Origin: Candidatus Falkowbacteria bacterium
GTDB lineage: Bacteria; Patescibacteriota; Patescibacteriia; CAIXNZ01
Direction: 5' to 3'
NCBI GenBank assembly: GCA_963774955.1
Contig: CAVZGV010000005.1
Location: 30,495-94,494, forward strand
Length of the DNA: 64,000 nt
Shown here: positions 3,138 through 42,908 of the stretch, piece by piece
Layout of the letters: each line of letters opens with the position of its first letter
Numbering within the stretch: the first letter of the stretch is position 1
Position numbers and translations under genes: made by a program
Notes under the pieces: generated by a model
Database searches by the model: none
What the model saw: the letters and a program-made list of their open reading frames with translations, nothing else
What the model was told of the DNA's origin: nothing

Positions 3138-4796
<1,659 letters not shown>

Positions 4797-4911
4797 TTAA
4801 TAATAAATAAAAAGTGTAAAGTGAGCTATAAGAGCTAAATGGGGATAGGATAATATGGGAATATGGGAAATTTTTCACTTTTACCCTTTTCCCCTATAGC
4901 TCTTTTAGCTC

Positions 4912-5205
4912 TTATTCCCCTATAACTGCCAAGATATCCTCTTCCCTTATAATCAACAAGTCCTTTTCACCAGGCAGTTCATCCGGAGAATATTTTTTAA
5001 AAATAACTTTGTCACCGACTTTGACTGACATTGGCGCTCTTTGACCGTTTTCTAAAAGTTTGCCGGATCCGATGGCCACCACTTCGCCCTTTTCCGGTTT
5101 TTCCTTATCAACCGTATCAGGCAAAATAATACCGGCCTTGGAAACTTCCTGACCATTGATGGGTTTGATTAGGACGTGATCGTTTAGAGGTTTGTAGTTT
5201 GGCAT
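4912..5205 (-). CDS. groES: co-chaperonin GroES
   Basis: 97 aa, LKPLNDHVLIKP...GEVVAIGSGK...VKVGDKVIFKKY matches GroES. It sits directly upstream of groEL. Confidence 0.9.
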   Translation of the reverse strand: MPNYKPLNDHVLIKPINGQEVSKAGIILPDTVDKEKPEKGEVVAIGSGKLLENGQRAPMSVKVGDKVIFKKYSPDELPGEKDLLIIREEDILAVIGE

Positions 5206-5319
5206 ATTTTTTATGATTTATACCCAACAATAGTGGGCTAATATTAGATTAAACAATCTTACAAAAATTTCTCAAATAAGTCAAGGAAAATATCCGACTG
5301 AAAGTAACGATTTTGGGGT

Positions 5320-5475
5320 CTCTTTAAGGCTAAGCCTTGAACGAACGGCAGACCCCCGGAATCCAAAGTCGTTCAGGAATCCAATTCCCAATTGGGAATT
5401 GGATTCCGAACCCCTGCAGTTGGATTCAATCATTTTCCCATTAGCCTTCACTTTAAGGCTTAGCCTTGAATGACT
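5320..5475. promoter_or_regulatory. palindrome-rich groESL upstream region (candidate heat-shock operator; no CIRCE)
   Basis: Perfect 32-bp palindrome GGAATCCAATTCCCAATTGGGAATTGGATTCC at 5366-5397. Two copies of the near-palindrome CTTTAAGGCT(A/T)AGCCTTGAA flank it at about 5322-5345 and 5449-5472. Confidence 0.35.
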
Positions 5476-5495
5476 AGCGCTTCTTCTAAAATAAA

Positions 5496-5526
5496 AAACG
5501 GCCCCTTTTTGAGACCGTTTTAATGT
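5496..5526 (-). terminator. terminator after the aminotransferase gene
   Basis: On the minus strand, AACGGTCTC-aaaaagg-GGCCGTT hairpin followed by TTTTTT. Confidence 0.45.
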
Positions 5527-5530
5527 TATT

Positions 5531-6676
5531 TTATTTGCCTAAAAATCTTGCTAAACGACTCAAGCCCTCGGCCAATTCTCCCGGTGATGCCGCAAAGCTG
5601 AGCCTGACCCAGCCGGGATAGCCAAAGGCCATGCCCGGGACCAAGCCGAGTTTTTCCTGTTCCAGCAGCTCTTCACAAAACTTGAGACAGTCAACATTGT
5701 CGCCTGGGATTTTGAAAAAAAGATAGAAGGCACCCTGGGGCGGCAAGATCTCCAAGCCGGTTGCTTGGACAAACGGCAGTATAATCGTATTCAGCCGCTG
5801 TTCATAGGCTGCTTTCATCGTGGCCACTTCAGCCGCTGATTTGGCCAGAGCTGCCAAAGCAGCGTACTGGGAAATCGAGCTGGCACAGCTGGAAATCTGG
5901 GACTTGAATTTGGCCATGGCTGCAATCACTTCTTTAGGCCCAAGCGCATAACCCAGCCGATAGCCGGTCATGGCAAAAGCCTTGGAAGCGCCATCCAGAA
6001 TGATGGTTTTGTCCAGCATGCCCGGAAACTGAGCCATGCTGACATGCTTATTTTCGCCGTAAACGATCGGCGAATAAATCTCATCCGAAATCACCCAGAT
6101 ATTCTGGTCAGCCAGAATTTCCGCCATCGCGGCCATAACTTCAGGCGCAATCACAATGCCGGAAGGATTACTGGGTGAATTCAGGATAATTGCCTTGATC
6201 TTGGAATTAGCCAAAACCGCTGTAAGTTTGTCTAAATCCTTATAATCAAGAAAATGCGGCTTGCCGCCGACCAGTTTAACCATTTCAGGATAACTGGTCC
6301 AGTAAGGCTTGATGATCAGAACTTCATCTCCGGGATTTACTACCGCTGCCAGGGCCAAAAAAATCCCTTCTTTACCGCCATTGGTAGTCAAAATCTGAGT
6401 TAAAGGATCATAATCCAGACCGCGGCTTTCGTTGATTGACCCGGAAATCGCCTTCAGCAAAGGCGCTATGCCTTTGACCGGAGTGTACTTGGTTTTACCG
6501 GTTTTAGCTGCTTCGGCCGTGGCCTCAATGACCGCCTTAGGCGGTGGAAAATCCGGCTCCCCTGCCGCCAGGATAATTGTGTCCGGGAATTTGGCCTTCA
6601 TGTCTTTGGCTTTTTTATCAAAAGCCATGGTCACTGATTCCTGAATTTCGCTGACGCGTTTCGCTAGTTCCATCAT
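5531..6676 (-). CDS. class I/II pyridoxal-phosphate-dependent aminotransferase (AspC/aromatic aminotransferase-like)
   Basis: 381 aa with an SKAFAMTGYRLGY PLP-lysine region and NPSNPSG-like motifs. Overlaps tyrA by 4 nt, suggesting an operon. Confidence 0.85.
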   Translation of the reverse strand: MMELAKRVSEIQESVTMAFDKKAKDMKAKFPDTIILAAGEPDFPPPKAVIEATAEAAKTGKTKYTPVKGIAPLLKAISGSINESRGLDYDPLTQILTTNGGKEGIFLALAAVVNPGDEVLIIKPYWTSYPEMVKLVGGKPHFLDYKDLDKLTAVLANSKIKAIILNSPSNPSGIVIAPEVMAAMAEILADQNIWVISDEIYSPIVYGENKHVSMAQFPGMLDKTIILDGASKAFAMTGYRLGYALGPKEVIAAMAKFKSQISSCASSISQYAALAALAKSAAEVATMKAAYEQRLNTIILPFVQATGLEILPPQGAFYLFFKIPGDNVDCLKFCEELLEQEKLGLVPGMAFGYPGWVRLSFAASPGELAEGLSRLARFLGK

Positions 6677-7410
6677 ACCCCTCCTTGATTTACTTTTTTA
6701 TCGACTTTATCCAAACTTTCAATGAACCTTTGCCGCGTTTCCCTGGCATACGGATTGAAATTCTGCATGTCAAGAAAAAGTTGCCAAGAATCATTGGTCA
6801 CGGTTTCCATTACTCTTAACAAACGTTCAAAACCTAACGTGGTAATTTGTTGATCTTTAAAACCTACTTCCTCGAGTCCCCGACCGATAAAATGCACCAG
6901 GGATAAACTTTTAGCTGCCTGCTGGTCATGATCTTCGGGCGTGGTTTCAATTATCTTAACTTCCAGTTTATTTAAAATCTCTTTAACTTCAGCTAATCTG
7001 ACGGGACTAATTCTTAATGGACATAAAACCCACTGCAAATCCTTGGTTCCGTTTTTGGCGCTGTCCGGACCGAACATGGGATGAGTAGCCATAATTTCAT
7101 TGTCAGCGGAAATATTTTCCCGTAACCATTGACTGGGAAAAAATTTAACTGAACAGACATCCATGACCAAAGAGCCTTTTTTCAGCAATGGTGCGATTTC
7201 CTTTATCTTTTCATCGGTTGCAGATATTGCCACTGACACAAAAACCCAGTCACACTGACAAACCTCCTCAAGTGTCGCCCATTTCAAACCTAATTCTTTA
7301 GCCTCGGCTGATTTATCTGAACGATTACAAACCAGAACCTCGGCGTAAGGCTTAAGTATCTTGGCTAAAAGTTGTCCGAACCGGCTAAAGCCGATAATTC
7401 CGATGGTCAT
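6673..7410 (-). CDS. tyrA: prephenate/arogenate dehydrogenase
   Basis: N-terminal Rossmann motif IGIIGFSRFGQ and the overall TyrA-like layout. Confidence 0.8.
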   Translation of the reverse strand: MTIGIIGFSRFGQLLAKILKPYAEVLVCNRSDKSAEAKELGLKWATLEEVCQCDWVFVSVAISATDEKIKEIAPLLKKGSLVMDVCSVKFFPSQWLRENISADNEIMATHPMFGPDSAKNGTKDLQWVLCPLRISPVRLAEVKEILNKLEVKIIETTPEDHDQQAAKSLSLVHFIGRGLEEVGFKDQQITTLGFERLLRVMETVTNDSWQLFLDMQNFNPYARETRQRFIESLDKVDKKVNQGGV

Positions 7411-7479
7411 AAATATTATTTAACATCCAATAATCAATAATCAACATCCAAACAAATTCTAATTTCTAATAACCAATAA

Positions 7480-7854
7480 CTAATCTTTTTTAATTTCAGA
7501 TTTTTTATTGATTATTGCGGTGAAAATTTTTAATAATTCGGTTGCCTCTCCAATTAAAAACGCTTGTTCGCTTTGTGCCTTTTGTTCTTCACCGGGATCT
7601 GACAATTTCAACCACAATCTGCTTTCTTTCACTTCTTTTCTGCAAATACGAATCCTGAAAATAAAATCCTTATCGCTTATTGCTTCGTTAGCTTCTATAT
7701 AATTTGCCGCAGTTGAGCCTGAAGATCTAATAAGCTGCTTAGAATATTCAAGATTGGCCTGGGTTTTGGGTATCAACTTAGTATAATCCCTGCACCTCCT
7801 AGCAAATTCATAAGTCCTATCCTCTAAATCAAATTGGACATATTTTTCCCCCAT
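7480..7854 (-). CDS. four-helix-bundle protein (TIGR02436 / 23S rRNA intervening-sequence protein family)
   Basis: 124 aa, ...SSGSTAANYIEANEA... signature of the family. Confidence 0.8.
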   Translation of the reverse strand: MGEKYVQFDLEDRTYEFARRCRDYTKLIPKTQANLEYSKQLIRSSGSTAANYIEANEAISDKDFIFRIRICRKEVKESRLWLKLSDPGEEQKAQSEQAFLIGEATELLKIFTAIINKKSEIKKD

Positions 7855-7912
7855 AGATTTATTTATTATTTATTGATTATTAATTATTGTTTGATTATTG
7901 GTGATTGATTAT

Positions 7913-8489
7913 TGGTTATTTAGCCTTTGTTACCGCTAAAAACGTCGTAAAATTAAACTTCAAATCCTGAATTCCTTCTTCCAAGTATTTCCATCCCATA
8001 CAACTTGGCCGCTCCTTTGGCCGCAATGGTCGCCGTATCAGGAGTTAATTTGCCTTCTGCTAAATCTTTAACTGCCTTGGCAGTATCTTCCCACTGGATA
8101 ATTTCCGCTTGGGGCCACATTCTCTTAATATACATTTTACATTGTTTTAAAGCCTGATCATGAGAAGCAATTTTTTTAATATCTTCTCTTTTAGTTCCCG
8201 GTTTAACAATCAAATTATGGCGAATATCAATTTCAAACAGATTTTCAATATTAAATAAATGTTTAGCCATGGCATAAACAGCTTCATAGACAATACCGCC
8301 ATTGGAATTTTCAATGGGAAAAACTCCCATATTGATTTCGCTCTTATCCAAAGCAGTCAGCACATTTTCCACGGAAATTAAGTACCTGAGTTCATAGTCG
8401 CTTAAAGCGTTTTTATAAACATAATATTCAGCTGCTTCCTCGGAAAAAGAGCCCTGGGCTCCGGAAACGCCGATGATGAGTTTAGGCAT
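7913..8489 (-). CDS. pheA: prephenate dehydratase (PDT domain only), with a +1 frameshift near the 3' end
   Basis: N-terminal GxxGSFSEEAA PDT signature. The track ORF ends at 7953 (..KLYGMEILGRRNSGFEV). Removing one G near 7991 restores the conserved ..ILEEGIQDLKFNFTTFLAV.. ending and a stop near 7913. Confidence 0.75.
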
Positions 8490-13217: not shown

Positions 13218-14180
13218 TTATTTTAATAATTCACTGCGTTTTTGTTCAAATTTTTCCAGGTATTCCAGCCTGCGGTCGCTTTCATGAAACTTTAACATTT
13301 TATCGTTAATAACTACTCGATTATCGCCCACAACCGCCAAATCTTTTTTCTTCTGGGACATTTTTTTCAGTTGCATCTTTTTGAATTTAGCTTCCAGCCA
13401 ATCACCGAATTTGCCCTGCCAGACGTATTCTTTGGTTTCGGCAATGGCTTTACTGGCAGAAGTATCCTCCACCCGCAGACGCGGACCCAACTCCTTGGGT
13501 AAAAAATTGGGGAAATATTTTTTCAGCCAGGCGTTTGCAGCTACTAATTTGGCATAGAAATTTTCACGCTGATAAATCGGCTGTAAAGTTGCCAGCCAAA
13601 AATCTAAATAAATATCATCCTTGGCGATTTTAATATCGGCTAAATCTAAATTTTCATCGGTCACGAAAAAACTCAAGCAAATCTTGTCTTTAACTTTGGC
13701 TTTAGGCGGTCGCAGTCCTAAAATAGTGATAATAAAGATCATGGCAAAACGAATCAGCCAGATCCGTCCGCTGGAGACGATAACAAAAAGATCAATATCG
13801 CTTTCTTCCTTGGCATTGCTGAAGGACAGGCTGTTACAAACAGCGACTAATTTTATAAAGGGTAAAAATTTAAATAATTTTATTGCCTTCAAGGCTAATT
13901 TATATTTTTTAGCGGCAATATTATAGCGCTGCAAACGAACATCAATAATTTCCTGTCTGCCTTTCAAAAAATAAAAACCGCGTTCAGCGGCCGTCAGTTT
14001 TTGCATAATATTACTATTTTTTAAACAATCCTCTATTTCTAATAAGCCGAAATCTCCGCCCTGCATGCCTTCAGAATAAAGATACTGCCAGATTTCCTGG
14101 CCAGTCAGCGGATAATCAAATAAGTCAAAATAAAGAATGGTATTAAGGATGAAGAGTTCGAGGTAATTTATGTTGAACAT
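13218..14180 (-). CDS. hypothetical protein (possible nucleotidyltransferase-like fold)
   Basis: 320 aa. A ...SNAKEESDIDLFVIV.. segment faintly resembles the NTase hG[GS]...DhD motif. Weak support. Confidence 0.35.
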   Translation of the reverse strand: MFNINYLELFILNTILYFDLFDYPLTGQEIWQYLYSEGMQGGDFGLLEIEDCLKNSNIMQKLTAAERGFYFLKGRQEIIDVRLQRYNIAAKKYKLALKAIKLFKFLPFIKLVAVCNSLSFSNAKEESDIDLFVIVSSGRIWLIRFAMIFIITILGLRPPKAKVKDKICLSFFVTDENLDLADIKIAKDDIYLDFWLATLQPIYQRENFYAKLVAANAWLKKYFPNFLPKELGPRLRVEDTSASKAIAETKEYVWQGKFGDWLEAKFKKMQLKKMSQKKKDLAVVGDNRVVINDKMLKFHESDRRLEYLEKFEQKRSELLK

Positions 14181-31663: not shown

Positions 31664-32146
31664 TTAAATTTTCCTGACCATAACCAAGACTTCGGGCAAA
31701 TTTTTATTATTCGGATATTTTTTTATTTTTTTAGCTACAAAACCGCAATCTTTATAAGTATTAACTGCCTGTAAATTATCAGGCCTAACCTCCAGATATA
31801 TTTTCCCAATCTTTTTCCGCTTGGCTTTTGTCAGTAATATTTTGATGGCAGTTGTACCGATTCCCCTGCCCCAATACTTCTTTTCACCTATAACTATTTG
31901 GGTCTCATACCATCCGCCTTTCCTGGCAGCTAAAGTAATGTGACCGACTGTTTTCTTACCATATTCAATCATGAACTGCCAATTTTTCTTATCTTCCAGC
32001 ATGTCCAGAAAATATTTCCGCACTTCAAAATCAGACAGTATTTTAAAATTGCCGCTGGTTACACTGATAAGTCCCCTATCACGCCACCACTTGAAAAAGT
32101 ATTTAATATCAGATGCTTTTAATTTTCTTAAATGAATTACTGCCAT
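31664..32146 (-). CDS. GNAT family N-acetyltransferase
   Basis: ..IVIGEKKYWGRGIGTTAIKILL.. motif A. Confidence 0.8.
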   Translation of the reverse strand: MAVIHLRKLKASDIKYFFKWWRDRGLISVTSGNFKILSDFEVRKYFLDMLEDKKNWQFMIEYGKKTVGHITLAARKGGWYETQIVIGEKKYWGRGIGTTAIKILLTKAKRKKIGKIYLEVRPDNLQAVNTYKDCGFVAKKIKKYPNNKNLPEVLVMVRKI

Positions 32147-32150
32147 CTAC

Positions 32151-32768
32151 TTATTTTAAATTTATTATCTTTTCCAACTCCTTAACAAATTTTTTCGTTA
32201 AACTGCTTTTACGATATCGCATGGGCATTTTTCGCCACTTTTTTATTCCACGCTTAGCAAATAATTTTGCTTTGGCTTTGTTTCCCATTTGAATGTAAAG
32301 TGTTGCCAAAGCATAATCAGAGCCATAGTGTCCCCTAATATGCTTGTAGGCAAGAAGATAAAATTTTTCAGCATTTTTTAAATCGCCAAAATTCCGATAA
32401 CAATGTCCGATATACATATTATATGCCTTATCATTAGAAATCCTGATGTACTTTTTAGCCAGGGAAAATGCCCGCTTATCCTTTCGCCTGATTAAAAATC
32501 TAATCTTGCCAAAATAACCGCCGTTATATTTGGGATACTTGTTTATCAATCGGTCATAAATGTCTTCCGATTCCTTAAGATCAAGTTGATCTTTATTTTT
32601 CTGACCACGTTTGTCTAATAATTCACCGAGCATTGATAAAACATCCTTGTCATTAGGATATTTTTCTAACCATTGCCTTAAAAGTAATATACCGGGAGTA
32701 TAATTATCCTGATCGCGATAATGATTAAATTTTTGATGTAATTTTTTAGCTGCTAATTTTTTATTCAT
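32151..32768 (-). CDS. hypothetical basic protein with TPR-like helical repeats
   Basis: 205 aa, K/R-rich, with repeated helical hairpins (..AYNMYIGHCYRNFGDLKNAEKFYLLAY..). Confidence 0.35.
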   Translation of the reverse strand: MNKKLAAKKLHQKFNHYRDQDNYTPGILLLRQWLEKYPNDKDVLSMLGELLDKRGQKNKDQLDLKESEDIYDRLINKYPKYNGGYFGKIRFLIRRKDKRAFSLAKKYIRISNDKAYNMYIGHCYRNFGDLKNAEKFYLLAYKHIRGHYGSDYALATLYIQMGNKAKAKLFAKRGIKKWRKMPMRYRKSSLTKKFVKELEKIINLK

Positions 32769-32831
32769 ACAATAACTATTTTCTTAGAACTACTTATATG
32801 CTAACAAATATCAGGGTAAAGATAAACCATA

Positions 32832-33305
32832 TTACAACTTAATAATCGGGGTATAATTCCCGCCTTTTGAGGTAATCTTTGCCTTAAACGCCAGCCAAAT
32901 ACCCAGAGAGGCCTTATTATCTTTATGTATAGTACAAGATAAATATTTGAGGTTACTATTCTTAGCAATTTCCAATATCTGTTTAAAAGCTTGAGTTGTA
33001 ATCCCCATTCCCCAATACTTGCTGGCTAACCAGTAACCGACATTGGCTTTCTTTGTCCCTAAATTAATATGACTTAGGGAAATCATGCCAATGGCCCGGC
33101 TTTTCAACATAATCGTAAATATTTGAGCCCGGTTATTTTTTGCCCAAACAATATTTTTAGTCTTAAACTCTTGAGCAGTTATTTTTTTACCTTCACCACC
33201 TAAACTCTGATCTAATTTTTCATCAGTATTCAAAATACTGACAAATTGGTTTACCTGCCTGGCGTTAAGATCATGAACGGATTTTATCCGGATATATTTT
33301 AACAT
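32832..33305 (-). CDS. GNAT family N-acetyltransferase (RimJ/RimL-like)
   Basis: ..GYWLASKYWGMGITTQAFKQIL.. motif A. Confidence 0.8.
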   Translation of the reverse strand: MLKYIRIKSVHDLNARQVNQFVSILNTDEKLDQSLGGEGKKITAQEFKTKNIVWAKNNRAQIFTIMLKSRAIGMISLSHINLGTKKANVGYWLASKYWGMGITTQAFKQILEIAKNSNLKYLSCTIHKDNKASLGIWLAFKAKITSKGGNYTPIIKL

Positions 33306-33470: not shown

Positions 33471-34304
33471 TTACCCGCCTATCTCAGCTAGTTTTTTTCG
33501 GTAAAACTCAGGGAAAACTTTCCGGAACGCAGGGTTAATGTCATCATTCCGAAAATAATTTTCCTGCAGATATACCAATGCTGCCATTCCTGGCTTGAAC
33601 TTTTCGAAAATGGCTCGATTGTTTACCCGAGGGCCGGTTGAAATTACGCGAGTCAATCCGTGTTTGCGCAGAACTTCAGCCTGGACATTCAAAGCCCGCC
33701 ACTCAGCGTCCCACCATTCCACCTGACAATCATATGAATTATATCCTTCCAATTCACACAACTTGAACCGCATGCCCGATTGGTGCTTGCCCATCCAGTC
33801 CTCAATGTGACGATTTTCATGCACCAAATATGAGGCCAAGAATCCTGGCCGCTCATTCTCAACGGAAAAATATTTGGGGTTAATGCCAAGGGCAAAATTT
33901 ATTCCGCTGAAAACCAGGGGACTGACATTTTCCTGACTCGTGTAAGCCGTTTTTAATTGCCTGGAACGAATCAAAGTAATTAAATTGGTTCTGGCGTCAT
34001 TATCAGGAATAGAATTGATAATTTCAACCAGCTTGTGCTGATCACTTTGCAACTCCTGGGCAGAATACAACCTCCCGACACTGGTGTCAGCCAGAATCAT
34101 CGTAAACTCATCGGAAGATAAATCTGCCACAGAATCATCAGAAACGGTCAGAACAAGGACAGAGCAGGCTGCCAGCAGAACCATTGACGTAAAGGCGATT
34201 GCCAGGCTCAACTTCTTTTTGGTCCACCAGCCTTGCTTATTCTCCGTGGCCATTGCCTTTTTGCCGGTCTTATTTTTACCCGACTTGATTCTCTTGCTCA
34301 TCAC
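33471..34304 (-). CDS. membrane-anchored protein with HExxH motif (putative zinc metallopeptidase)
   Basis: N-terminal K-rich stretch plus a TM helix, then LVHENRHIEDW (HExxH). GC-richer than neighbouring DNA. Confidence 0.4.
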   Translation of the reverse strand: MMSKRIKSGKNKTGKKAMATENKQGWWTKKKLSLAIAFTSMVLLAACSVLVLTVSDDSVADLSSDEFTMILADTSVGRLYSAQELQSDQHKLVEIINSIPDNDARTNLITLIRSRQLKTAYTSQENVSPLVFSGINFALGINPKYFSVENERPGFLASYLVHENRHIEDWMGKHQSGMRFKLCELEGYNSYDCQVEWWDAEWRALNVQAEVLRKHGLTRVISTGPRVNNRAIFEKFKPGMAALVYLQENYFRNDDINPAFRKVFPEFYRKKLAEIGG

Positions 34305-36172: not shown

Positions 36173-36676
36173 ATGAATAAACGCCTACAAAAACAAATTC
36201 TTAAAATGGTTGCCAAGGATCAGGCTATGCGCTTTTTCGGGGTTTGGAATCCCAGGATAGACCATAAAAATACCAATGCCTTAAAAAATATTATTAAAAA
36301 GTATGGCTGGCCTGATATTCCCTTAGTTGGTAAGAAAGCGAGCCTGGGCGCCTTTCTTTTGGCCCAGCATGCTGATAAAGATTTAAAATTTCAAAAGCTA
36401 TGCCTGAAAATAATTACTGAAAAATTTAAAGAGCATAAAATGGAGCCGCAAAGCGTTGCTTACTTAACTGACCGCGTTCTAGTAAATTCCGGACAAAAAC
36501 AAATCTACGGCACTCAATTTTATTTTAATAAAAAGACCAAAAAGTTTGGACCGCGTCCAATCAATGATCGAAAAAATCTTTTTAAGCGCCGTCGCCAAAT
36601 GAAACTTGGTTCATTTTGGGCAAACTACAAACTGCTGCTCAAAAGGCACAGGGAGATACAAATAAAAAAAAGGTAA
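36173..36676 (+). CDS. hypothetical protein
   Basis: 167-aa ORF. A TATAAT box sits 7 nt upstream of the ATG, suggesting a leaderless transcript. Confidence 0.4.
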   Translation: MNKRLQKQILKMVAKDQAMRFFGVWNPRIDHKNTNALKNIIKKYGWPDIPLVGKKASLGAFLLAQHADKDLKFQKLCLKIITEKFKEHKMEPQSVAYLTDRVLVNSGQKQIYGTQFYFNKKTKKFGPRPINDRKNLFKRRRQMKLGSFWANYKLLLKRHREIQIKKR

Positions 36677-36696: not shown

Positions 36697-36753
36697 AAAT
36701 TTACTTATTAAAGAACGAGCAGATTTTTTGCCACAGTCTTTGGCACCACGAAG
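36697..36753. repeat. ~55-bp imperfect direct repeat (copy 2), overlapping the 3' end of ORF 36701-36910
   Basis: aaatttacttattaaagaacgagcagattttttgccacagtctttggcaccacg. It encodes ..WCQRLWQKICSFFNK*. Confidence 0.6.
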
Positions 36754-36910
36754 GCTTGGGTTCTTCCTTTTCATCCGGGTCCTTGTCTTCATGACTTGAG
36801 CCACTGCCATAATAGCCCATGCGCTCGCGCCAGTGTGGCGCAGGATTTTCATTTACCCATCCGGTAATCGGATCATAATCCCTGGAGCAACCATCATCAA
36901 AATCACGCAT
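36701..36910 (-). CDS. small hypothetical protein (W/H/G-rich), last gene of the ATP-grasp operon
   Basis: 69-aa ORF, GC-richer, 36 nt downstream of the HExxH gene. Confidence 0.35.
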   Translation of the reverse strand: MRDFDDGCSRDYDPITGWVNENPAPHWRERMGYYGSGSSHEDKDPDEKEEPKPSWCQRLWQKICSFFNK

Positions 36911-36946: not shown

Positions 36947-37603
36947 CTAAACCTTTGACCTGGTTTGGTCTGCCAATTTATCAACCAATTGATAAATATT
37001 TTTATTCTTCAGCCAGATATTTTTGATAGTTGTTCTCAACTGCGAATGTTCCTCATACCCTTTATCAGCACATTCCATTAAATTAAAAAAATCCTGATTC
37101 AAAATTTCGGTTAAAGATTCCTTGATGTCATAATATTGCTTCAAATTTAACTCCTTATTAAAGCCCTCACCAAAAGCATACCAGGTATAAAAATGCCATA
37201 ATTCATGCATAACCACCATTTTGGGCCGATCTGAATCTAAGCTGACAAAAAATAAATTATCTATCAATGAATAACCGCAACGGTCATTGGACGTTAGATA
37301 GGCGGTAATTTTATCTACCGGCAAGCTGATCTCAAAAATCTCATCAGCCCGTTTAAAAAATTGATTCTGAACTTTATCCCATTCAGTCTGGAATTTGGCC
37401 AGCTGGGCTTGAGGGTCAATTTTATTAATATCCAAATAATTTTTTATAAATTCCTGCAATAACACGTCATCCAACTCTTCCCCGTAAGTCTGCTGATAAA
37501 TAAAATGCTGACGAGAGGGTTTGCCGCCATGACCCAAAGATTTGGCAGCAATATGAAAATTGAGAATATCTTTTGATAAATTGTATTCAAATTGTATGGT
37601 CAT
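36947..37603 (-). CDS. HExxH-motif protein (putative zinc peptidase; candidate leader peptidase)
   Basis: ..VVMHELWHFYTWYAFGEG.. HExxH+E-like motif. A 6-nt gap to the upstream MTase gene suggests the same operon. Confidence 0.45.
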   Translation of the reverse strand: MTIQFEYNLSKDILNFHIAAKSLGHGGKPSRQHFIYQQTYGEELDDVLLQEFIKNYLDINKIDPQAQLAKFQTEWDKVQNQFFKRADEIFEISLPVDKITAYLTSNDRCGYSLIDNLFFVSLDSDRPKMVVMHELWHFYTWYAFGEGFNKELNLKQYYDIKESLTEILNQDFFNLMECADKGYEEHSQLRTTIKNIWLKNKNIYQLVDKLADQTRSKV

Positions 37604-37609
37604 AAAGAT

Positions 37610-38212
37610 TTACCTATTTTTTTGAGCAATCATTCTGACAACTCCATGTTGATGAGAATCTTCATAGCCTGCATGACCAGGATCAGCAACAACCAATTCT
37701 CTATAAAAAATTAAATCGTAATCACTAAACAAACTTTTAAGCTCTTCGGCTTCAAAGTAGGTCTTATTAGCATTATTTTGATATGAAGGATCTTTGGTCG
37801 TAAATGCGGCAATAATCACATAGCCGCCTGATTGTAACCCGTTTTTTATATTTTCAATTAAGTTGTATCCGTCCGTCTTTGGGAGAAACTGCAGAATATT
37901 AAACGCGTTAATGATGGCAAATTTATTTTTCTCAATTAAATAACTAGAAACATTGCCACAAATAGCCTTTATAGTTTTGAGCCCCGATTCCACGGACTTG
38001 TCTTTAAGCTTTTTTACTCCCTCCTGAGATTGATCAACGGCCGTAACCTTAAAGCCCTGTTTGGCCATAAATGCAGAGTCACGCCCCTGGCCGCAACCCA
38101 AGTCTAAAAACTCAGCCCCCGGCCTAACTTTTTTCCAAACCATGCCTAATAGTTGATTACGCTGATTACCCCAAACATCGACGGTTTTTTTATAAATTTT
38201 ATTGTAGTCCAT
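37610..38212 (-). CDS. class I SAM-dependent methyltransferase (TehB-like)
   Basis: Motif I FLDLGCGQGRDS, 200 aa, 4-nt gap to the upstream gene. Confidence 0.8.
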   Translation of the reverse strand: MDYNKIYKKTVDVWGNQRNQLLGMVWKKVRPGAEFLDLGCGQGRDSAFMAKQGFKVTAVDQSQEGVKKLKDKSVESGLKTIKAICGNVSSYLIEKNKFAIINAFNILQFLPKTDGYNLIENIKNGLQSGGYVIIAAFTTKDPSYQNNANKTYFEAEELKSLFSDYDLIFYRELVVADPGHAGYEDSHQHGVVRMIAQKNR

Positions 38213-38216
38213 AAAA

Positions 38217-38645
38217 TTAAAATCTATCTATTTTCCTTGGATCCATTCCAATTTCATTTTCAATTTCAGAATAAATCTCTTCTTTGCTTTTACCCCAATT
38301 CTGCCGCTCAAAATAGGTATCGTAAAATCCCCATTTTTCTTTACCGCCCAGCTCGCGGTATTTTTTTATTAATTTATAGGCCAATTTAAAATAATCCAAT
38401 CGTCCTACATTGATTAAAATATTAGCAGCATAATAATAATCGTCCCTATTTTCCAACGCCTCATTCTCAATTAAAAAATAAACGATTCTAGCTCTTTCTT
38501 CGCACTCACCTTTAAACACATAAAACGGCAATTTATCTTCAGCTTCCACCAATTTGGGGGTGCCTTGTTGTTTTATAATTTCCTGACGTCTTTGCTGATC
38601 AAATTCATGAAAATTTTTTAAAAGTGTTGAAATAATTTTAGTCAT
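38217..38645 (-). CDS. hypothetical protein within the graspetide operon
   Basis: 142-aa ORF, 55 nt downstream of the ATP-grasp gene. No recognisable family. Confidence 0.4.
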   Translation of the reverse strand: MTKIISTLLKNFHEFDQQRRQEIIKQQGTPKLVEAEDKLPFYVFKGECEERARIVYFLIENEALENRDDYYYAANILINVGRLDYFKLAYKLIKKYRELGGKEKWGFYDTYFERQNWGKSKEEIYSEIENEIGMDPRKIDRF

Positions 38646-38700
38646 ATATTTAAAATTAAAAAGGGATACTAAGCTTTGGCTTTTCTCCCTAAGTATACTT

Positions 38701-39663
38701 TCAGACTAGCAATTCGGCAATGGCCTGTGCGATCTGAAGTTCTGTTTTTAGTTGCACAAAATACCACTGCCCATTGGGATTAATCTCTAAAAAGATATAA
38801 TCCCCGTTCGGAGTGACAATCATGTCAATGCAGCCGAATTTCAAGCCAAGTGCTTTCATGTAGCCATGAATTTGTTCCTCAATCTGGACGGGCAAAATCA
38901 TCGGCTCCATTTTCACGTCAAAATCATTAAGCTGGGGCTTGCGGCGCCAATCCAAGGAAGTTGCCTCATCTTGTTGAGACAAGATTTTTACCGCGAATAT
39001 TTTTTCGCCTACCACTGTAATCCTAAGTTCATAAGCCTTAGGCACAATTTCCTGAAAAATTGACGGCGACATCTTTACGGAATCAATCTCTCTCATTTGT
39101 TCAGCTGTCACCAGATTTGTATAAATGACCCGGTTAAGCATGGGACTGGAAGCAAGTATTTTAACTATAATCCTGCCACCATGCTTGTCATAAAACTCAC
39201 GAACCTTTTCAGGATCTGAAGTAATACAGGTGCTTGGCACCATAAAACCATTTTTGACGGCTTGATCAAGTTGAAAAATTTTATTCTCAGCTATTTGTAT
39301 GGCCCAGGGATCGTTCAGCCATTTTTTATCACGACAAACACTCCAAATTGCCTGTCTTAAAATATGGAACTGACGATCAATGAACTGCCGGTGCTCCACG
39401 GGATTATAATTCAATAATTCCCTGGGCAGATGCGGCTTCATGTACCAGACAGCGGAAAATTCACTTAGGTCAAATGACTGACCGTCAATGACTAGTCCGA
39501 ACTTTTGCCTGCCATCAATAATTTCAAAATTCAAATACTCGCCAAGCAAGCATTTATCCTGCTTAAAAAGTTTTGCGGACGCACCAAGCTTTTCTAAGGC
39601 AGAAAAAACCGCTTGAAACGCTTTTACTTCATAAACGCCAGAGTTACCAATTGCTAAAATCAT
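38701..39663 (-). CDS. ATP-grasp ribosomal-peptide maturase, MdnC/MvdD (microviridin/graspetide) family
   Basis: 320 aa. ..SAVWYMKP.., ..ELRITVVGEKIFAVKILSQQDEATSLDWRR.., ..GCIDMIVTPNGDYIFLEINPNGQWYF..IAQAIAELLV are collinear with recalled MdnC motifs (SAVWYRR, ELRITIVGEQIFTAAI, YDWRK, AIDMIVTP..YIFLEINPVGEFF, ISQAIAEILV). GGAGG RBS 7 nt upstream. Confidence 0.8.
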   Translation of the reverse strand: MILAIGNSGVYEVKAFQAVFSALEKLGASAKLFKQDKCLLGEYLNFEIIDGRQKFGLVIDGQSFDLSEFSAVWYMKPHLPRELLNYNPVEHRQFIDRQFHILRQAIWSVCRDKKWLNDPWAIQIAENKIFQLDQAVKNGFMVPSTCITSDPEKVREFYDKHGGRIIVKILASSPMLNRVIYTNLVTAEQMREIDSVKMSPSIFQEIVPKAYELRITVVGEKIFAVKILSQQDEATSLDWRRKPQLNDFDVKMEPMILPVQIEEQIHGYMKALGLKFGCIDMIVTPNGDYIFLEINPNGQWYFVQLKTELQIAQAIAELLV

Positions 39664-39676
39664 CCGCTAACCTCCT

Positions 39677-39706
39677 ATTTAAAACAGGGGGCAAATATTT
39701 GCCCCC
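39677..39706 (-). terminator. intra-operon attenuator hairpin between the precursor and the ATP-grasp gene
   Basis: Perfect palindrome GGGGGCAAATATTTGCCCCC, followed on the minus strand by tgtttt. Confidence 0.5.
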
Positions 39707-39726
39707 TGGCTGGGTTGGAGCTGATC

Positions 39727-39825
39727 CTATGAAGCATCAGCACCGTCAATGTCATCCCAAGCGCCACTGGTTGTGGGGCTTACCGCTCCTTCACGCACTT
39801 CAAGAAACATGAGAATGAACGGCAT
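39727..39825 (-). CDS. graspetide precursor peptide (32 aa): MPFILMFLEVREGAVSPTTSGAWDDIDGADAS
   Basis: Translated by hand. An ATG lies 7 nt after GGAGGT, giving 32 codons before TAG. The leader PFILMFL resembles the microviridin PFFARFL recognition helix; the core has TTS and four Asp. Not in the ORF track (below the 60-aa cutoff). Confidence 0.6.
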   Translation of the reverse strand: MPFILMFLEVREGAVSPTTSGAWDDIDGADAS

Positions 39826-40048
39826 GGCAGGTACCTCCTTTCTTAGAATTTTAAAGACCTACATGTATCATAAAACATCAGTATAATACAGCAAGGAAAT
39901 TAAATCATAAAATTTGATAATATTTTGTAACAAAATTAATGTAAATCCTTTTAAACCATTAAAACACAGGTTTTAACTGAACAAAAAACTGTTAAAAATC
40001 ACTAACAAAAATATCCACAGCCCCTTGTAATTTCAACTGCCATTCATT

Positions 40049-40080
40049 GACAAAGTCGCTTATTTTTGATAATCTGAATC
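40049..40080 (+). promoter_or_regulatory. putative sigma70 promoter of the MFS gene
   Basis: TTGACA..(15-17 nt)..GATAAT/TAATCT, followed by an AAAGGAGAAG RBS. Confidence 0.4.
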
Positions 40081-40114
40081 ATTAACCAGTTCTTTAGACA
40101 AAGGAGAAGATATA

Positions 40115-41287
40115 ATGAAAAAATCAAAAACCATGGTAATCATCGGCCTTGTGATTATGGAGCTTTTGGCTAGCATTGATACCACCGGAGTTACGGTCAT
40201 GGTGCCGACTTTGCAAGCATATTTTAAAATCCCGCCGGAAATAGCCGGTTGGATTTTAATGGCCTATCTGATTCCCTTTTCTGTTTGCCTGGTGCCCATG
40301 GGCTATCTGGCTGACAGAATCGGCAAACCGGAAAAAGTCATTGTCTGGGGTATTTTAACTTTTGCCCTGGCTTCAGGGCTGTGCGGACTGGCAGTTAACG
40401 AATACATGCTGATCGCCTGCCGAATTGTCAAAGGCATGGCTGCGGCCGGCATGTTTGCCTGCGAATTTGCCATTATCCTTAAATACTGGCAGGAACCGCG
40501 ACGCATCGTAGAAATCATCATGATCGGTCTGGCAGTCGGCGTTTTAATCGGTCCCATCTGCGGCGGCTTATTTTCCAGTCCCGAAACCTGGCGTTACTTT
40601 TTTCTGATCGGAACAGTTTTAGCCCTGATAGGCTTTATCGCCTACCAATGGATTAAAAATCTGGAACCGATAAAACGCGAAGCAGACACCCTAACAGTCC
40701 AACCGCAAACCTTCAGCCAAAAAGCTAAACTGCTGATAAAAATCATGTTCTGGGGCATGATCCTTGATTTCATAATTTCAGCGGCCACCCAGGGCGCCAA
40801 TCTGCTTATCACTTTGCAGGTTCAAGAAAATCTGCACAAAACTCCGCTTTATAACGGCATGATTCTACTGGTAATCGCTCTGGGCATGATCCTGGCCAAT
40901 ACTTTGGGCCTAAGCAGTAAACTGTTTAAGGAAATCCGCTATGCAGTCATGGCCAGCGGATCCGCCTTTGCCCTAATGCTCGTTTTAACCGCTTTGCTGA
41001 CTGACTGGACAGGAATTTTGGCCTTTGGCTTTTACTTTATCATGGGTATAAGTCTGGGCATTATTCTGGCCACAGTCGAACTTATGGTTTTGACCCCATT
41101 GCCCACCCAACAACTGGCTCAAGGCAACGGCTGGATTGTCAGTTCCATGCAGGCCGGTTATGGTCTGGCTTCGGCCCTGATTCCCTGGCTGTTTTTAAGG
41201 ACAGGTATAACCATGGCCGCGTGCATTTTGGCCGGACTGGTTTACCTGGCTCTTGGTTCTTTCTTTATTTTCCAAAAACGAAAGTAA
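40115..41287 (+). CDS. MFS transporter (12 TM; DHA-like efflux), divergent from the graspetide operon
   Basis: 390 aa with 12 predicted helices and a ..GYLADRIGKPEK.. loop-2/3 motif. Confidence 0.85.
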   Translation: MKKSKTMVIIGLVIMELLASIDTTGVTVMVPTLQAYFKIPPEIAGWILMAYLIPFSVCLVPMGYLADRIGKPEKVIVWGILTFALASGLCGLAVNEYMLIACRIVKGMAAAGMFACEFAIILKYWQEPRRIVEIIMIGLAVGVLIGPICGGLFSSPETWRYFFLIGTVLALIGFIAYQWIKNLEPIKREADTLTVQPQTFSQKAKLLIKIMFWGMILDFIISAATQGANLLITLQVQENLHKTPLYNGMILLVIALGMILANTLGLSSKLFKEIRYAVMASGSAFALMLVLTALLTDWTGILAFGFYFIMGISLGIILATVELMVLTPLPTQQLAQGNGWIVSSMQAGYGLASALIPWLFLRTGITMAACILAGLVYLALGSFFIFQKRK

Positions 41288-41327: not shown

Positions 41328-41388
41328 CCAATTTTTATATAAAAGAAAAAAGGACTTCGCGTTCGAAGTCCTTGGGGTGGTTATTTTG

Positions 41389-41460
41389 GGGTGGACGAAG
41401 GGATTTGAACCCTCAACCCCTAGGGCCACAACCTAGTGCTCTACCATTGAGCTACGTCCA
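41389..41460 (-). tRNA. tRNA-His (anticodon GTG), followed by a hairpin terminator
   Basis: On the minus strand GTGGACG TA GCTC AATGGTA GAGC A CTAGG TTGTGGC CCTAG .. GAGGG TTCAAAT CCCTT CGTCCAC C. The downstream GGACTTCG-cgtt-CGAAGTCC plus T-run (41353-41372) acts as the terminator. Confidence 0.8.
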
Positions 41461-41543
41461 CATCCCTAGGTAACCTTTAAGGTTTATATCGCAACTTAAC
41501 ATATAACATTTTAGATGTCAAGTCACTCAAAACCGTTACCTGA

Positions 41544-42908
41544 TTATTTCTCGGTCAGCCGTTCGATCACCTCGTCAACAGTAAGTAACTCCTGCTTCTT
41601 TGTTTCCAAAGCTTTCAGGGTCACTTTGTTGTCTTTGGCTTCATTGGCTCCGTAGATAATCAAATATGGAACGCCGCGGTTAAGTGTGTAGATCAGCTGT
41701 CCTTTCAGGGTCAGCTCATAGCCCAGATAAATTTCGGTTTTAATGCCGGCGGCACGCAGCTTGCTGGCAATGACCAAAATGTCGTTTTGCAGCGTGGCAT
41801 CAATATTGGCGATCATTACCTTGGCCGTGGCTTTTTCCCTGGGTAAAATTCCCAGCTGATCCATGGCCGCGATCAGACGGTCAACGCCGACTGAAGCACC
41901 CACTGCCGGAACTTTTTCCCCGGTATAGCGCATGACCAGATCGTCGAAACGTCCGCCGGAAAAGACCGAACCGATTTGCGGCAGGTCAGTCAGCGTGGTT
42001 TCGAAAACCGGACCGGTGTAATAGCCCAAGCCTCTGGCAATGGACAGGTCAAACTTCCAGTTGGCTTGCGGGATACCAAGCAGTTGAAGGTTGGCGATGA
42101 TTTGTTCGCATTCGCTGACACCTTCTTCGGCTACGGCAACGCCGGCAAAAAAACTTTTCAGCCCGTTGATCAGGCTTAATGAATCAATATTGCCTTCTGA
42201 CAAGGCTAAAAATTCCTTGATCTTTTCGACACTGGCATCATCCAGAGCCAAGGCAGACTCGTCATACTGGTTATCGGGCTGGCGCTGCAGTTCTTTGACT
42301 ACTTCGTCCAGACCGATCTTATCCAGTTTATCCAAGATGCGAAAAACATCAGCTGAACGTTCAGGCGCAAACCCGGCCACTGCAGGCAGACCATTGAGAA
42401 TTTTGCGGTTGTTGAAACGGATGACGTAATTTTTGAGGCCCAAGTTGCGCAGAGTTTCGTACATCAGCTGAATGATTTCCGTGTCGGAAAGAATCGAGTT
42501 GCTGCCGACAATGTCAGCATCAAACTGGGCAAATTCACGGAATCTGCCGGCCTGAGGTTTTTCATGACGCCAGACCATCCCGTACTGATAGCGCTTAAAC
42601 GGCTTAAGTATATCCGGATAAGCCGCGACCACTCGAGATAAGGGCACTGTCAGATCGAACCTGAGTGTAACGTCCTGGTCTCCGGACTGAAAGCGATAGA
42701 CTTCCATTTTGAATTCATCACGATCTGTGCCCAAAACAGAAGAACGCTCCAGACCGGGTGTATCCAAAGGCACAAAGCCAAAGCTTTCAAAAGTCTCCCG
42801 AATTTTGGCAATGATTTTCTGCCGGGGGATCATAACCTCCGGCAAATAATCGCGAAAACCGCCCAAAAGGTCCGGTTTCAAACGTGTTTTTGTTTCCTTG
42901 TCGCTCAT
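41544..42908 (-). CDS. hisS: histidyl-tRNA synthetase
   Basis: Class II motifs (..RFDLTVP.., ..GGRFDDL.., ..GLGYYTG..) and a C-terminal anticodon-binding domain. Adjacent to tRNA-His. Confidence 0.85.
   Translation of the reverse strand: MSDKETKTRLKPDLLGGFRDYLPEVMIPRQKIIAKIRETFESFGFVPLDTPGLERSSVLGTDRDEFKMEVYRFQSGDQDVTLRFDLTVPLSRVVAAYPDILKPFKRYQYGMVWRHEKPQAGRFREFAQFDADIVGSNSILSDTEIIQLMYETLRNLGLKNYVIRFNNRKILNGLPAVAGFAPERSADVFRILDKLDKIGLDEVVKELQRQPDNQYDESALALDDASVEKIKEFLALSEGNIDSLSLINGLKSFFAGVAVAEEGVSECEQIIANLQLLGIPQANWKFDLSIARGLGYYTGPVFETTLTDLPQIGSVFSGGRFDDLVMRYTGEKVPAVGASVGVDRLIAAMDQLGILPREKATAKVMIANIDATLQNDILVIASKLRAAGIKTEIYLGYELTLKGQLIYTLNRGVPYLIIYGANEAKDNKVTLKALETKKQELLTVDEVIERLTEK

Follow-up and report, generated by a model that had tools for sequence, protein, structure and literature searches.

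The window analyzed here, a 64,000-nt stretch of contig CAVZGV010000005.1 (positions 30,495 to 94,494) from a Candidatus Falkowbacteria bacterium, likely carries a minimal graspetide cluster, that is, a cluster for an omega-ester RiPP (a peptide made by ribosomes and modified after translation), in a member of the Patescibacteria (candidate phyla radiation, CPR). Judged by what is conserved among related loci, the functional unit of the family appears to be a precursor peptide, an ATP-grasp ligase and a protein of the DUF6624 family. A methyltransferase, a gluzincin-like metallopeptidase, a 69-amino acid (aa) open reading frame (ORF) and an MFS transporter lie in or beside the same run of genes and appear to be lineage-specific additions outside the core of the system. 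The features on which the argument depends are as follows.

39917-39945, minus strand: promoter-like site TTTACA-17-TATTAT (consensus scan, 10 of 12 matches; a pattern match only)
39834-39840, minus strand: ribosome-binding site AAGGAGG of the precursor, 8 nt 5' of its ATG, by direct reading of the sequence
39727-39825, minus strand: predicted graspetide precursor gene, 32 aa, with homologous ORFs beside homologous ligases
39685-39708, minus strand: palindromic hairpin of 24 nt followed by TTTT, between precursor and ligase; the best terminator-like match of the region
38701-39663, minus strand: ATP-grasp peptide maturase (putative graspetide synthetase) of 320 aa, behind a separate GGAGG ribosome-binding site, assigned from NCBIfam and PDB matches
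38217-38645, minus strand: 142-aa protein directly 3' of the ligase, with no Pfam, NCBIfam or PHROG match
36173-36676, plus strand: DUF6624 (PF20329, 6.9e-20) protein, 167 aa, convergent with the operon

Precursor peptide and ATP-grasp ligase

The precursor gene was missing from the ORF list of the window. It is a 32-codon ORF (39727-39825, minus strand) encoding MPFILMFLEVREGAVSPTTSGAWDDIDGADAS, and a preliminary description of this DNA had correctly pointed to it and to the strong ribosome-binding site in front of it. Its leader motif spans P2-E9 (PFILMFLE), starting at residue 2 of 32. In the core, T18 and T19 are conserved as predicted donors and D27 and D30 as predicted acceptors, together with G21; Lys is absent.

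We analyzed the conservation of this ORF beside homologous ligases, a check that the preliminary description had proposed. A homologous ORF was found 5' of the ligase, 15-95 nt away, in all 15 of the full-length genome loci. With metagenome loci added, homologous precursors stood beside homologous ligases in 45 loci, yielding 33 distinct sequences. Loci with more distant ligases (33-37% identity) were left out of the motif; precursors were sought 5' of these ligases, and few were convincing. The 33 distinct precursors share the consensus PFILxFLE-x3-GA-x3-TTxG-x5-D-xx-D-xx with constant spacing, bearing out the PFFARFL-like leader and the Thr/Asp core without Lys that had been proposed from the window peptide. 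L5, G21, D27 and D30 are each invariant (33/33), G13 occurs in 32, F3 and I4 in 31, and P2 in 29. T18 is present in 31 of the 33, as is T19, which is replaced by Ser in the other two. D24 and D25 are variable, with D25 found in 24 of 33 precursors, and probably are not essential acceptors. Extensions N-terminal to PFIL range from 0 to about 24 residues across the family and are not conserved; by this comparison, the window precursor appears to be about as short as family members get.

Position 28, immediately after Asp27, is Gly in 12 of the distinct precursors, Cys in 11, Ala in seven and Ser in three. Its codon (39742-39744) sits between the two invariant Asp acceptors, and the Cys version reads DIDCxD. 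A Cys at this position could be an additional modification site in some lineages. By inspection of the loci, the choice between Cys and Gly did not track with the presence of a canonical DUF6624.

The closest relative of the cluster, locus L001 in a Candidatus Parcubacteria metagenome-assembled genome (MAG), encodes a ligase 90% identical at the protein level and a peptide identical to that of the window. The two precursor genes differ at seven of 99 nucleotides, all of them third-position and synonymous, with one in the stop codon, while the 150 nt 5' of the precursor are only 48% identical. This pattern suggests strong purifying selection on the peptide. Overall, conservation in sequence and position argues that the small ORF is a genuine, conserved precursor gene. 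No published experimental characterization of any member of this precursor family was found in the literature.

The 320-aa ATP-grasp protein was located on the minus strand at 38701-39663 with every motif quoted for it in the preliminary description, which had assigned it to the microviridin type and not to RimK, GshB or LysX. We checked this assignment with hidden Markov models (HMMs), and the scores favored it, albeit under the curated cutoffs. Among NCBIfam models, the ligase best matched TIGR04185 MvdC (5.6e-63, 213 bits), TIGR04187 (SAV_5884-type, 6.1e-63) and TIGR04184 MvdD (2.3e-59, 201 bits), followed by Grasp-with-spasm (3.2e-37) and RimK_fam (1.1e-14, 54.5 bits), with LysX and GshB lower still. 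The nearest solved structures by sequence were MdnB (5ig8, 8.4e-47) and MdnC (5ig9, 5e-45), then AMdnB and CdnC (7mgv). All 38 homologues compared keep K168, R214, D238-W-R240 and E293-x-N295, residues that active ATP-grasp enzymes typically have. A search for homologues returned 1416 matches, the best at 50-65% identity, and the named ones were almost all from Patescibacteria/CPR. The ligase appears to form a distinct subfamily of the MdnB/MdnC/MvdD clade and to lie outside the RimK/GshB/LysX clade.

These data also bear on the alternative that the small ORF is spurious and that the ATP-grasp protein, as a ligase of RimK/GshB/LysX type, has a protein or a small molecule as its substrate. The RimK ATP-grasp model was the only Pfam model to exceed its gathering cutoff (23.6 vs 21 bits), and several databases label the homologues 'glutathione synthase/RimK-type ligase-like'. 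However, the full-length graspetide maturase models lead RimK_fam by about 160 bits on this protein, the ORF is kept in sequence, position and spacing in 45 loci, it differs from that of L001 by synonymous changes only, and it follows a strong ribosome-binding site. We regard this alternative as extremely improbable, the HMM scores, the 45-locus conservation and the synonymous-only changes having effectively refuted it.

Intergenic hairpin, DUF6624 and a proposed course of maturation

The preliminary description had reported a perfect 20-bp palindrome with a T-tract between precursor and ligase. The palindrome, CAGGGGGCAAAT/ATTTGCCCCCTG, is present and structurally conserved, but it is 24 nt long, with a 10-bp stem and a 4-nt loop (39708-39685), and is followed by TTTT. 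A scan of the region placed its best terminator-like match at this site. The precursor-ligase intergenic region of the window folds with z = -2.95 relative to shuffling controls. A strong GC-rich hairpin was found at the same intergenic position in 14 of 15 relatives, and the hairpin sequences are mutually unrelated. Among the 14 intergenic regions that were folded (the window and 13 relatives), 13 gave z ≤ -2.1, the lowest being -7.1. An Rfam scan of the window returned three tRNAs only and no known RNA element at the hairpin. The retention of structure without sequence supports a functional role, for example in terminating part of the transcripts or in protecting that of the precursor. The hairpin is probably a leaky terminator or a transcript-stabilizing element, and the earlier suggestion of an attenuator that keeps precursor transcripts in excess appears reasonable.

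We assessed the conservation of neighboring genes in two ways, by tblastn of the window proteins against all loci and by all-versus-all clustering of the ORFs of 43 family loci, and the two agreed. DUF6624 (PF20329), which the preliminary description had overlooked and whose gene in the window falls outside the interval it covered (36947-41287), was present in 39 of the 43 family loci and was the only recurrent neighbor of the ligase, nearly always directly 3' of it on the same strand. The family shares the invariant residues D16, Q17, Q65, H66, D68, D70, Q74, D100, R101, Q110, G113, T114, Q115 and R140, and the window copy retains all invariant polar residues of the canonical partners. AlphaFold2 modeled the window copy with a predicted local distance difference test (pLDDT) score of 95.8, and the model gave no informative fold match. 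DUF6624 has been flagged as a possible undiscovered biosynthetic enzyme of graspetide groups 18, 20, 23 and 42 (Carter, Ramesh, Saad, Mubarik and Mitchell 2026, ACS Chem Biol 21:698, PMC13097080), the only mention of this family in the literature that we searched. Three stand-alone copies were found without an ATP-grasp gene nearby, one of them on a Woesearchaeota contig (L106, JACRKG010000050.1) and the others in L107 and L108; these homologues are 44-47% identical to the window copy. Since such stand-alone copies exist, DPANN archaea included, the DUF6624 family is not restricted to graspetide clusters.

We propose the following course of events for the precursor, ligase and DUF6624 module. 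The promoter-like site, which lies about 90 nt 5' of the precursor ATG within the 289 bp that separate the precursor from the divergent MFS gene, would drive a short, highly expressed message for the 32-aa precursor. The hairpin and its short U-tract would then probably terminate or stabilize most transcripts, leaving less read-through into the ligase and downstream genes. The ligase is expected to recognize the N-terminal PFILxFLE leader as the equivalent of the microviridin PFFARFL and, with ATP, to activate the side-chain carboxylates of Asp27 and Asp30. The hydroxyls of Thr18 and Thr19 could capture the activated Asp residues, giving two macrolactone rings and a bicyclic core; no lactam would be possible because the core lacks Lys. 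By analogy with the TTxxxxEE cores of plesiocin, a nested topology (T18-D30, T19-D27) would be preferred. Given its dense invariant polar residues, DUF6624 may be an obligatory partner, or else a tailoring enzyme with the peptide or the ligase as its target. More speculatively, DUF6624 could be a hitherto unrecognized component, catalyst or partner, that a widespread graspetide pathway of Patescibacteria cannot do without; this pathway would be built around a near-minimal precursor, and in the window lineage the partner slot would have passed to the 142-aa family, a tiny new one.

Several observations weigh against this proposal. The ligase fell under every curated NCBIfam cutoff, missing the equivalog cutoffs of MvdC (213 vs 425 bits) and MvdD (201 vs 475 bits), and its MvdD pre-ATP-grasp domain was just under the Pfam cutoff (25.1 vs 27 bits). 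Since the maturase models lead yet score under these cutoffs, the ligase falls in the graspetide clade but is not an MvdC/MvdD equivalog. Ring number and topology are deduced from residue conservation alone. No transporter, protease or methyltransferase recurs across the 43 family loci. The T-tract is absent from about six of the 14 relatives' hairpins, and about half are followed by a T-run; the hairpin may for this reason not act as a terminator. Finally, the DUF6624 gene of the window is inverted and lies 2 kb from the ligase. In a rough tree, the copies of the window and L001 were placed outside the clade of canonical partners and grouped with the partners of distant ligases and with stand-alone copies. 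Because it is on the opposite strand, 2 kb away and in a subclade that includes stand-alone copies, the window DUF6624 may be a bystander.

The 142-aa protein is rare, with nine representatives among 1.84 billion proteins. It was found in five of the 43 family loci by clustering and in more loci by tblastn. In the window, L001 and L076, its gene lies directly 3' of the ligase, the slot held by DUF6624 in most relatives. The 142-aa family had no significant Pfam match, and none of the four unknown window proteins matched PHROGs. A profile comparison (hhalign) of the 142-aa family with DUF6624 showed the motifs DQxxR and IIKxxG in common but was weak (E 1.3e-3, probability 18%), and a single-sequence comparison was negative. 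The 142-aa protein in the DUF6624 slot may represent a partner swap or a very divergent DUF6624 paralogue.

Carried to its end, this idea would have the 142-aa protein, possibly as a divergent paralogue, replace the canonical DUF6624 partner, with the convergent DUF6624 of the window being an unrelated stand-alone copy. Its position next to the ligase in three loci, the grouping of the window DUF6624 with stand-alone copies and the partners of distant ligases, and the two shared motifs are in its favor. Nevertheless, the hhalign probability is just 18%, loci L033-L035 carry both a 142-aa gene and a canonical DUF6624 and show that the two are not mutually exclusive, and the window DUF6624 keeps all of its invariant polar residues. 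We consider such a full replacement rather unlikely.

The arrangement of the module varies within the family. In L033-L035 (~4300-8434, Giovannonibacteria-like), there are two tandem ligase and DUF6624 pairs, the second ligase being 31.5% identical to that of the window, and the 142-aa gene lies on the opposite strand between the precursor and the first ligase. In these loci, a precursor could be identified only for the first of the two ligases. The precursor of L029 (5149-5235) lies 3' of DUF6624 instead of 5' of the ligase, and that of L053 (811-903) lies between the ligase and DUF6624. Outside the Patescibacteria, precursor-ligase-DUF6624 modules were found in L013 (OZ241749.1, a Chitinophagaceae chromosome) and L014 (a Gammaproteobacteria MAG), with ligases 50% and 37% identical to that of the window, respectively, a distribution that suggests horizontal transfer. 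In L013, the gap between precursor and ligase is only 14 nt and contains no hairpin.

Accessory genes and surroundings of the cluster

The remaining genes of the region are listed below.

37610-38212, minus strand: TehB-like class I S-adenosylmethionine (SAM) methyltransferase, 200 aa (PF03848, 2.7e-21; NF008992, 2e-24)
36947-37603, minus strand: gluzincin-like metallopeptidase, 218 aa, with HELWH, assigned from its zinc-peptidase fold
36701-36910, minus strand: 69-aa ORF with a strong ribosome-binding site, the last of the same-strand run (ORF list and sequence)
40115-41287, plus strand: MFS transporter, 390 aa, divergent from the precursor (PF07690, 2.2e-38)

Four genes follow the ligase on one strand, tightly packed with gaps of 4-55 nt. 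The preliminary description had named these as the genes for the 142-aa protein, a TehB-like methyltransferase, an HExxH protein and a 69-aa protein. All are present, except that the 69-aa ORF falls just outside the interval it covered. The cluster genes are on the minus strand, and the MFS gene, the sole exception among the features it named, is divergent as described. The HExxH protein, taken there as a putative peptidase, indeed has a gluzincin (zinc-peptidase) fold with HELWH at residues 133-137, E162 and intact zinc ligands. In the window organism, the methyltransferase, the HExxH protein, the 69-aa product and the MFS pump may process, decorate or export the peptide.

The preliminary description had presented the methyltransferase, HExxH and MFS genes as the defining gene complement of the cluster and had suggested that the methyltransferase converts Asp-Gly to an aspartimide. 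In a six-gene pathway of this kind, the ligase would form the esters, O-methylation of Asp27 by the methyltransferase would let Asp-Gly close to an aspartimide, the course taken in fuscimiditide and amycolimiditide, leader removal would fall to the HExxH protein, and export to the MFS pump. The tight same-strand packing makes co-transcription plausible, the window peptide contains D27-G28, and the zinc ligands of the gluzincin-fold HExxH protein are intact. Moreover, UbiE-like methyltransferases and zincin peptidases are described for some CPR branch 2 loci in the survey of Makarova et al. (2022, Biol Direct 17:7, PMC8939145). However, the methyltransferase is TehB-like class I, with no PIMT model among the best 25 of 41 NCBIfam matches. 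L001, with its identical peptide and 90%-identical ligase, lacks this gene, as do the other family loci, apart from a 36%-identical homologue that lies 3 kb from the ligase in the more distant L066 (ligase 42% identical). Gly follows Asp27 in only 12 of the 33 precursors. The HExxH protein occurs in four of the 43 family loci, and its homologues are mostly in unrelated contexts, while the MFS gene is common only to the window and L001 among all loci. We therefore judge the six-gene pathway to be quite unlikely; none of the three genes put forward as defining the cluster is conserved, and DUF6624 is.

The 142-aa and HExxH genes are direct neighbors in L001, suggesting that the methyltransferase of the window is a recent lineage-specific insertion. 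The HExxH protein is a candidate leader peptidase, apparently one not dedicated to the graspetide system. The MFS pump is a possible exporter with a weak link to the system. The 69-aa ORF has no family match and was found again in L001 only (65% identical over 46 aa).

In L021 (1177-3810), a 61%-identical homologue of the HExxH protein comes after a radical SAM gene and two ORFs, of 47 and 227 aa; this locus may be a different RiPP-like cluster using the same peptidase family. Near the window cluster, a 277-aa protein (33471-34304, minus strand) combines an N-terminal membrane anchor with an HENRH (HExxH) motif, has no Pfam match and is 81% identical in L001; it is possibly another metallopeptidase-like protein of this neighborhood.

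We also sought a second ATP-grasp gene, DUF6624 gene or precursor in the window and found none; a single ATP-grasp gene is present. The other 320-aa ORF of the window (13218-14180) had no Pfam match. The segment at about 33.4-41.3 kb resembles a variable island of small miscellaneous genes, most of which is shared with L001, minus the methyltransferase, NUDIX and CYTH genes. Next to the MFS/graspetide region, a tRNA-His gene (41387-41461, minus strand) adjoins a histidyl-tRNA synthetase gene (41544-42908, minus strand). Two genes for GNAT acetyltransferases flank the gene of a tetratricopeptide repeat (TPR) protein (31664-33305, minus strand) some 5 kb past the cluster, and they are separated from the cluster by unrelated genes (NUDIX, CYTH and others). 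GNAT enzymes are used by microviridin clusters, and TPR proteins are carried by CPR branch 1 loci.

Relation to known graspetides and significance

The preliminary description had matched this cluster with no known graspetide group, a view that did not hold. The precursor family is already listed in one published survey, as cluster 1865, and lies near group 42 of a second. Makarova et al. described two CPR branches of graspetide ligases (PMC8939145), and cluster 1865, from Candidatus Giovannonibacteria in CPR branch 2, is given there as a predicted graspetide precursor with the sequence MEKVDLKQTKEQEPTRQLPFILGFLEYREGAMAPTTCGIITDIDAYDAA. Loci L033-L035 carry exactly this precursor sequence, together with a ligase 62% identical to that of the window. 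By tblastn, it shares 62.5% identity over 32 aa with the window peptide, the two aligning without gaps in leader and core, and cluster 1865 has the same PFILxFLE leader, spacing and TTxG-x5-D-xx-D core as the window family. Unlike cluster 1865, the window peptide lacks an N-terminal extension ahead of its leader.

In the same survey, cluster 1865 is listed with only three near-identical Giovannonibacteria sequences; according to its text, these 'have no common features' apart from the leader motif, and for most branch 2 loci no precursor could be found (PMC8939145). In comparison, the family described here is broad, with 33 distinct precursors and an invariant core motif. The survey further mentions an uncharacterized 'cluster 23' protein in all branch 2 loci, together with sporadic UbiE-like methyltransferases and zincin peptidases (PMC8939145). 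We infer that 'cluster 23' is DUF6624.

Group 42 of Carter et al. comprises 22 biosynthetic gene clusters from candidate-phyla hosts, with DUF6624 in 81.8% and a short precursor (PMC13097080). It resembles the window family in its host range and in combining a ligase, DUF6624 and a short precursor. The group representative, from Candidatus Komeilibacteria, is reported as ...PLILDRL...FTTHGTPNDPDSGGTD, with the pattern PLILDRL...TTHGTPNDPDSGGTD (PMC13097080), and it shares the P-h-I-L leader and the TTxGT-x4-D core with the window peptide. The two differ in the spacer between leader and core, which is about 20 residues in the group 42 representative and in the precursor of L066 and eight in the window peptide, and in the second acceptor, which is arranged as D-x4-D in the former and as D-xx-D in the window family. 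The L066 precursor matches the group 42 type, and its ligase is 42% identical to that of the window. On this comparison, the window family would belong either inside group 42 or as a sister to it.

Among characterized graspetides, the microviridins (group 1) include MdnB and MdnC, the closest solved-structure relatives of the window ligase, and the window leader PFILMFLE resembles the microviridin PFFARFL. The cluster differs from microviridin clusters in having a single ligase instead of two and no linked GNAT or ABC transporter, and none of the 33 family precursors has a Lys or a KYPSD-type motif in its core, in contrast to the microviridin pattern TxKxPSDx(D/E)(D/E) with its Lys for the lactam. 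The PFFARFL motif is reported to activate the microviridin ligase (PMC8939145).

The graspimiditides (group 13, including fuscimiditide and amycolimiditide) are like the window in having a methyltransferase in the cluster and Asp-Gly in the core. Their PIMT and Asp-Gly are conserved, whereas the methyltransferase of the window is TehB-like and unconserved and the Gly is variable across the family. The dedicated PIMT-family O-methyltransferase of the graspimiditides corresponds to TIGR04188 (PMC8939145, Table 1).

The window core is also reminiscent of plesiocin: both combine a TT pair of donors with two acidic acceptors close by, and those of plesiocin form two nested esters. The window core differs in its acceptors, which are Asp instead of Glu and stand apart (DxxD), in its longer loop and in being a single core without repeats. 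In addition, the window ligase is not particularly close to the group 2 ligase PsnB (7drm, 6.4e-06). Plesiocin-type (group 2) peptides have hairpin-like bicyclic TTxxxxEE cores (Lee, Park & Kim 2017, cited in PMC8939145).

The locus is ordinary for its family, which is already listed in one published survey and is close to, or inside, a group of a second. According to the literature searched, no graspetide from CPR/Patescibacteria has been made or assayed, and the locus offers a compact test case, with a 32-aa substrate, four candidate cross-linking residues, a single ligase and one conserved partner, DUF6624. Establishing the function of DUF6624 would matter more than the locus itself, since the family is also linked to groups 18, 20, 23 and 42. 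The retention of the precursor-ligase-DUF6624 module across many tiny-genome lineages suggests that it has a real role, perhaps in dealings with hosts or competitors. If DUF6624 is indeed an obligatory component, these minimal-genome organisms would possess a partner-dependent mode of graspetide maturation, possibly used in host interactions.

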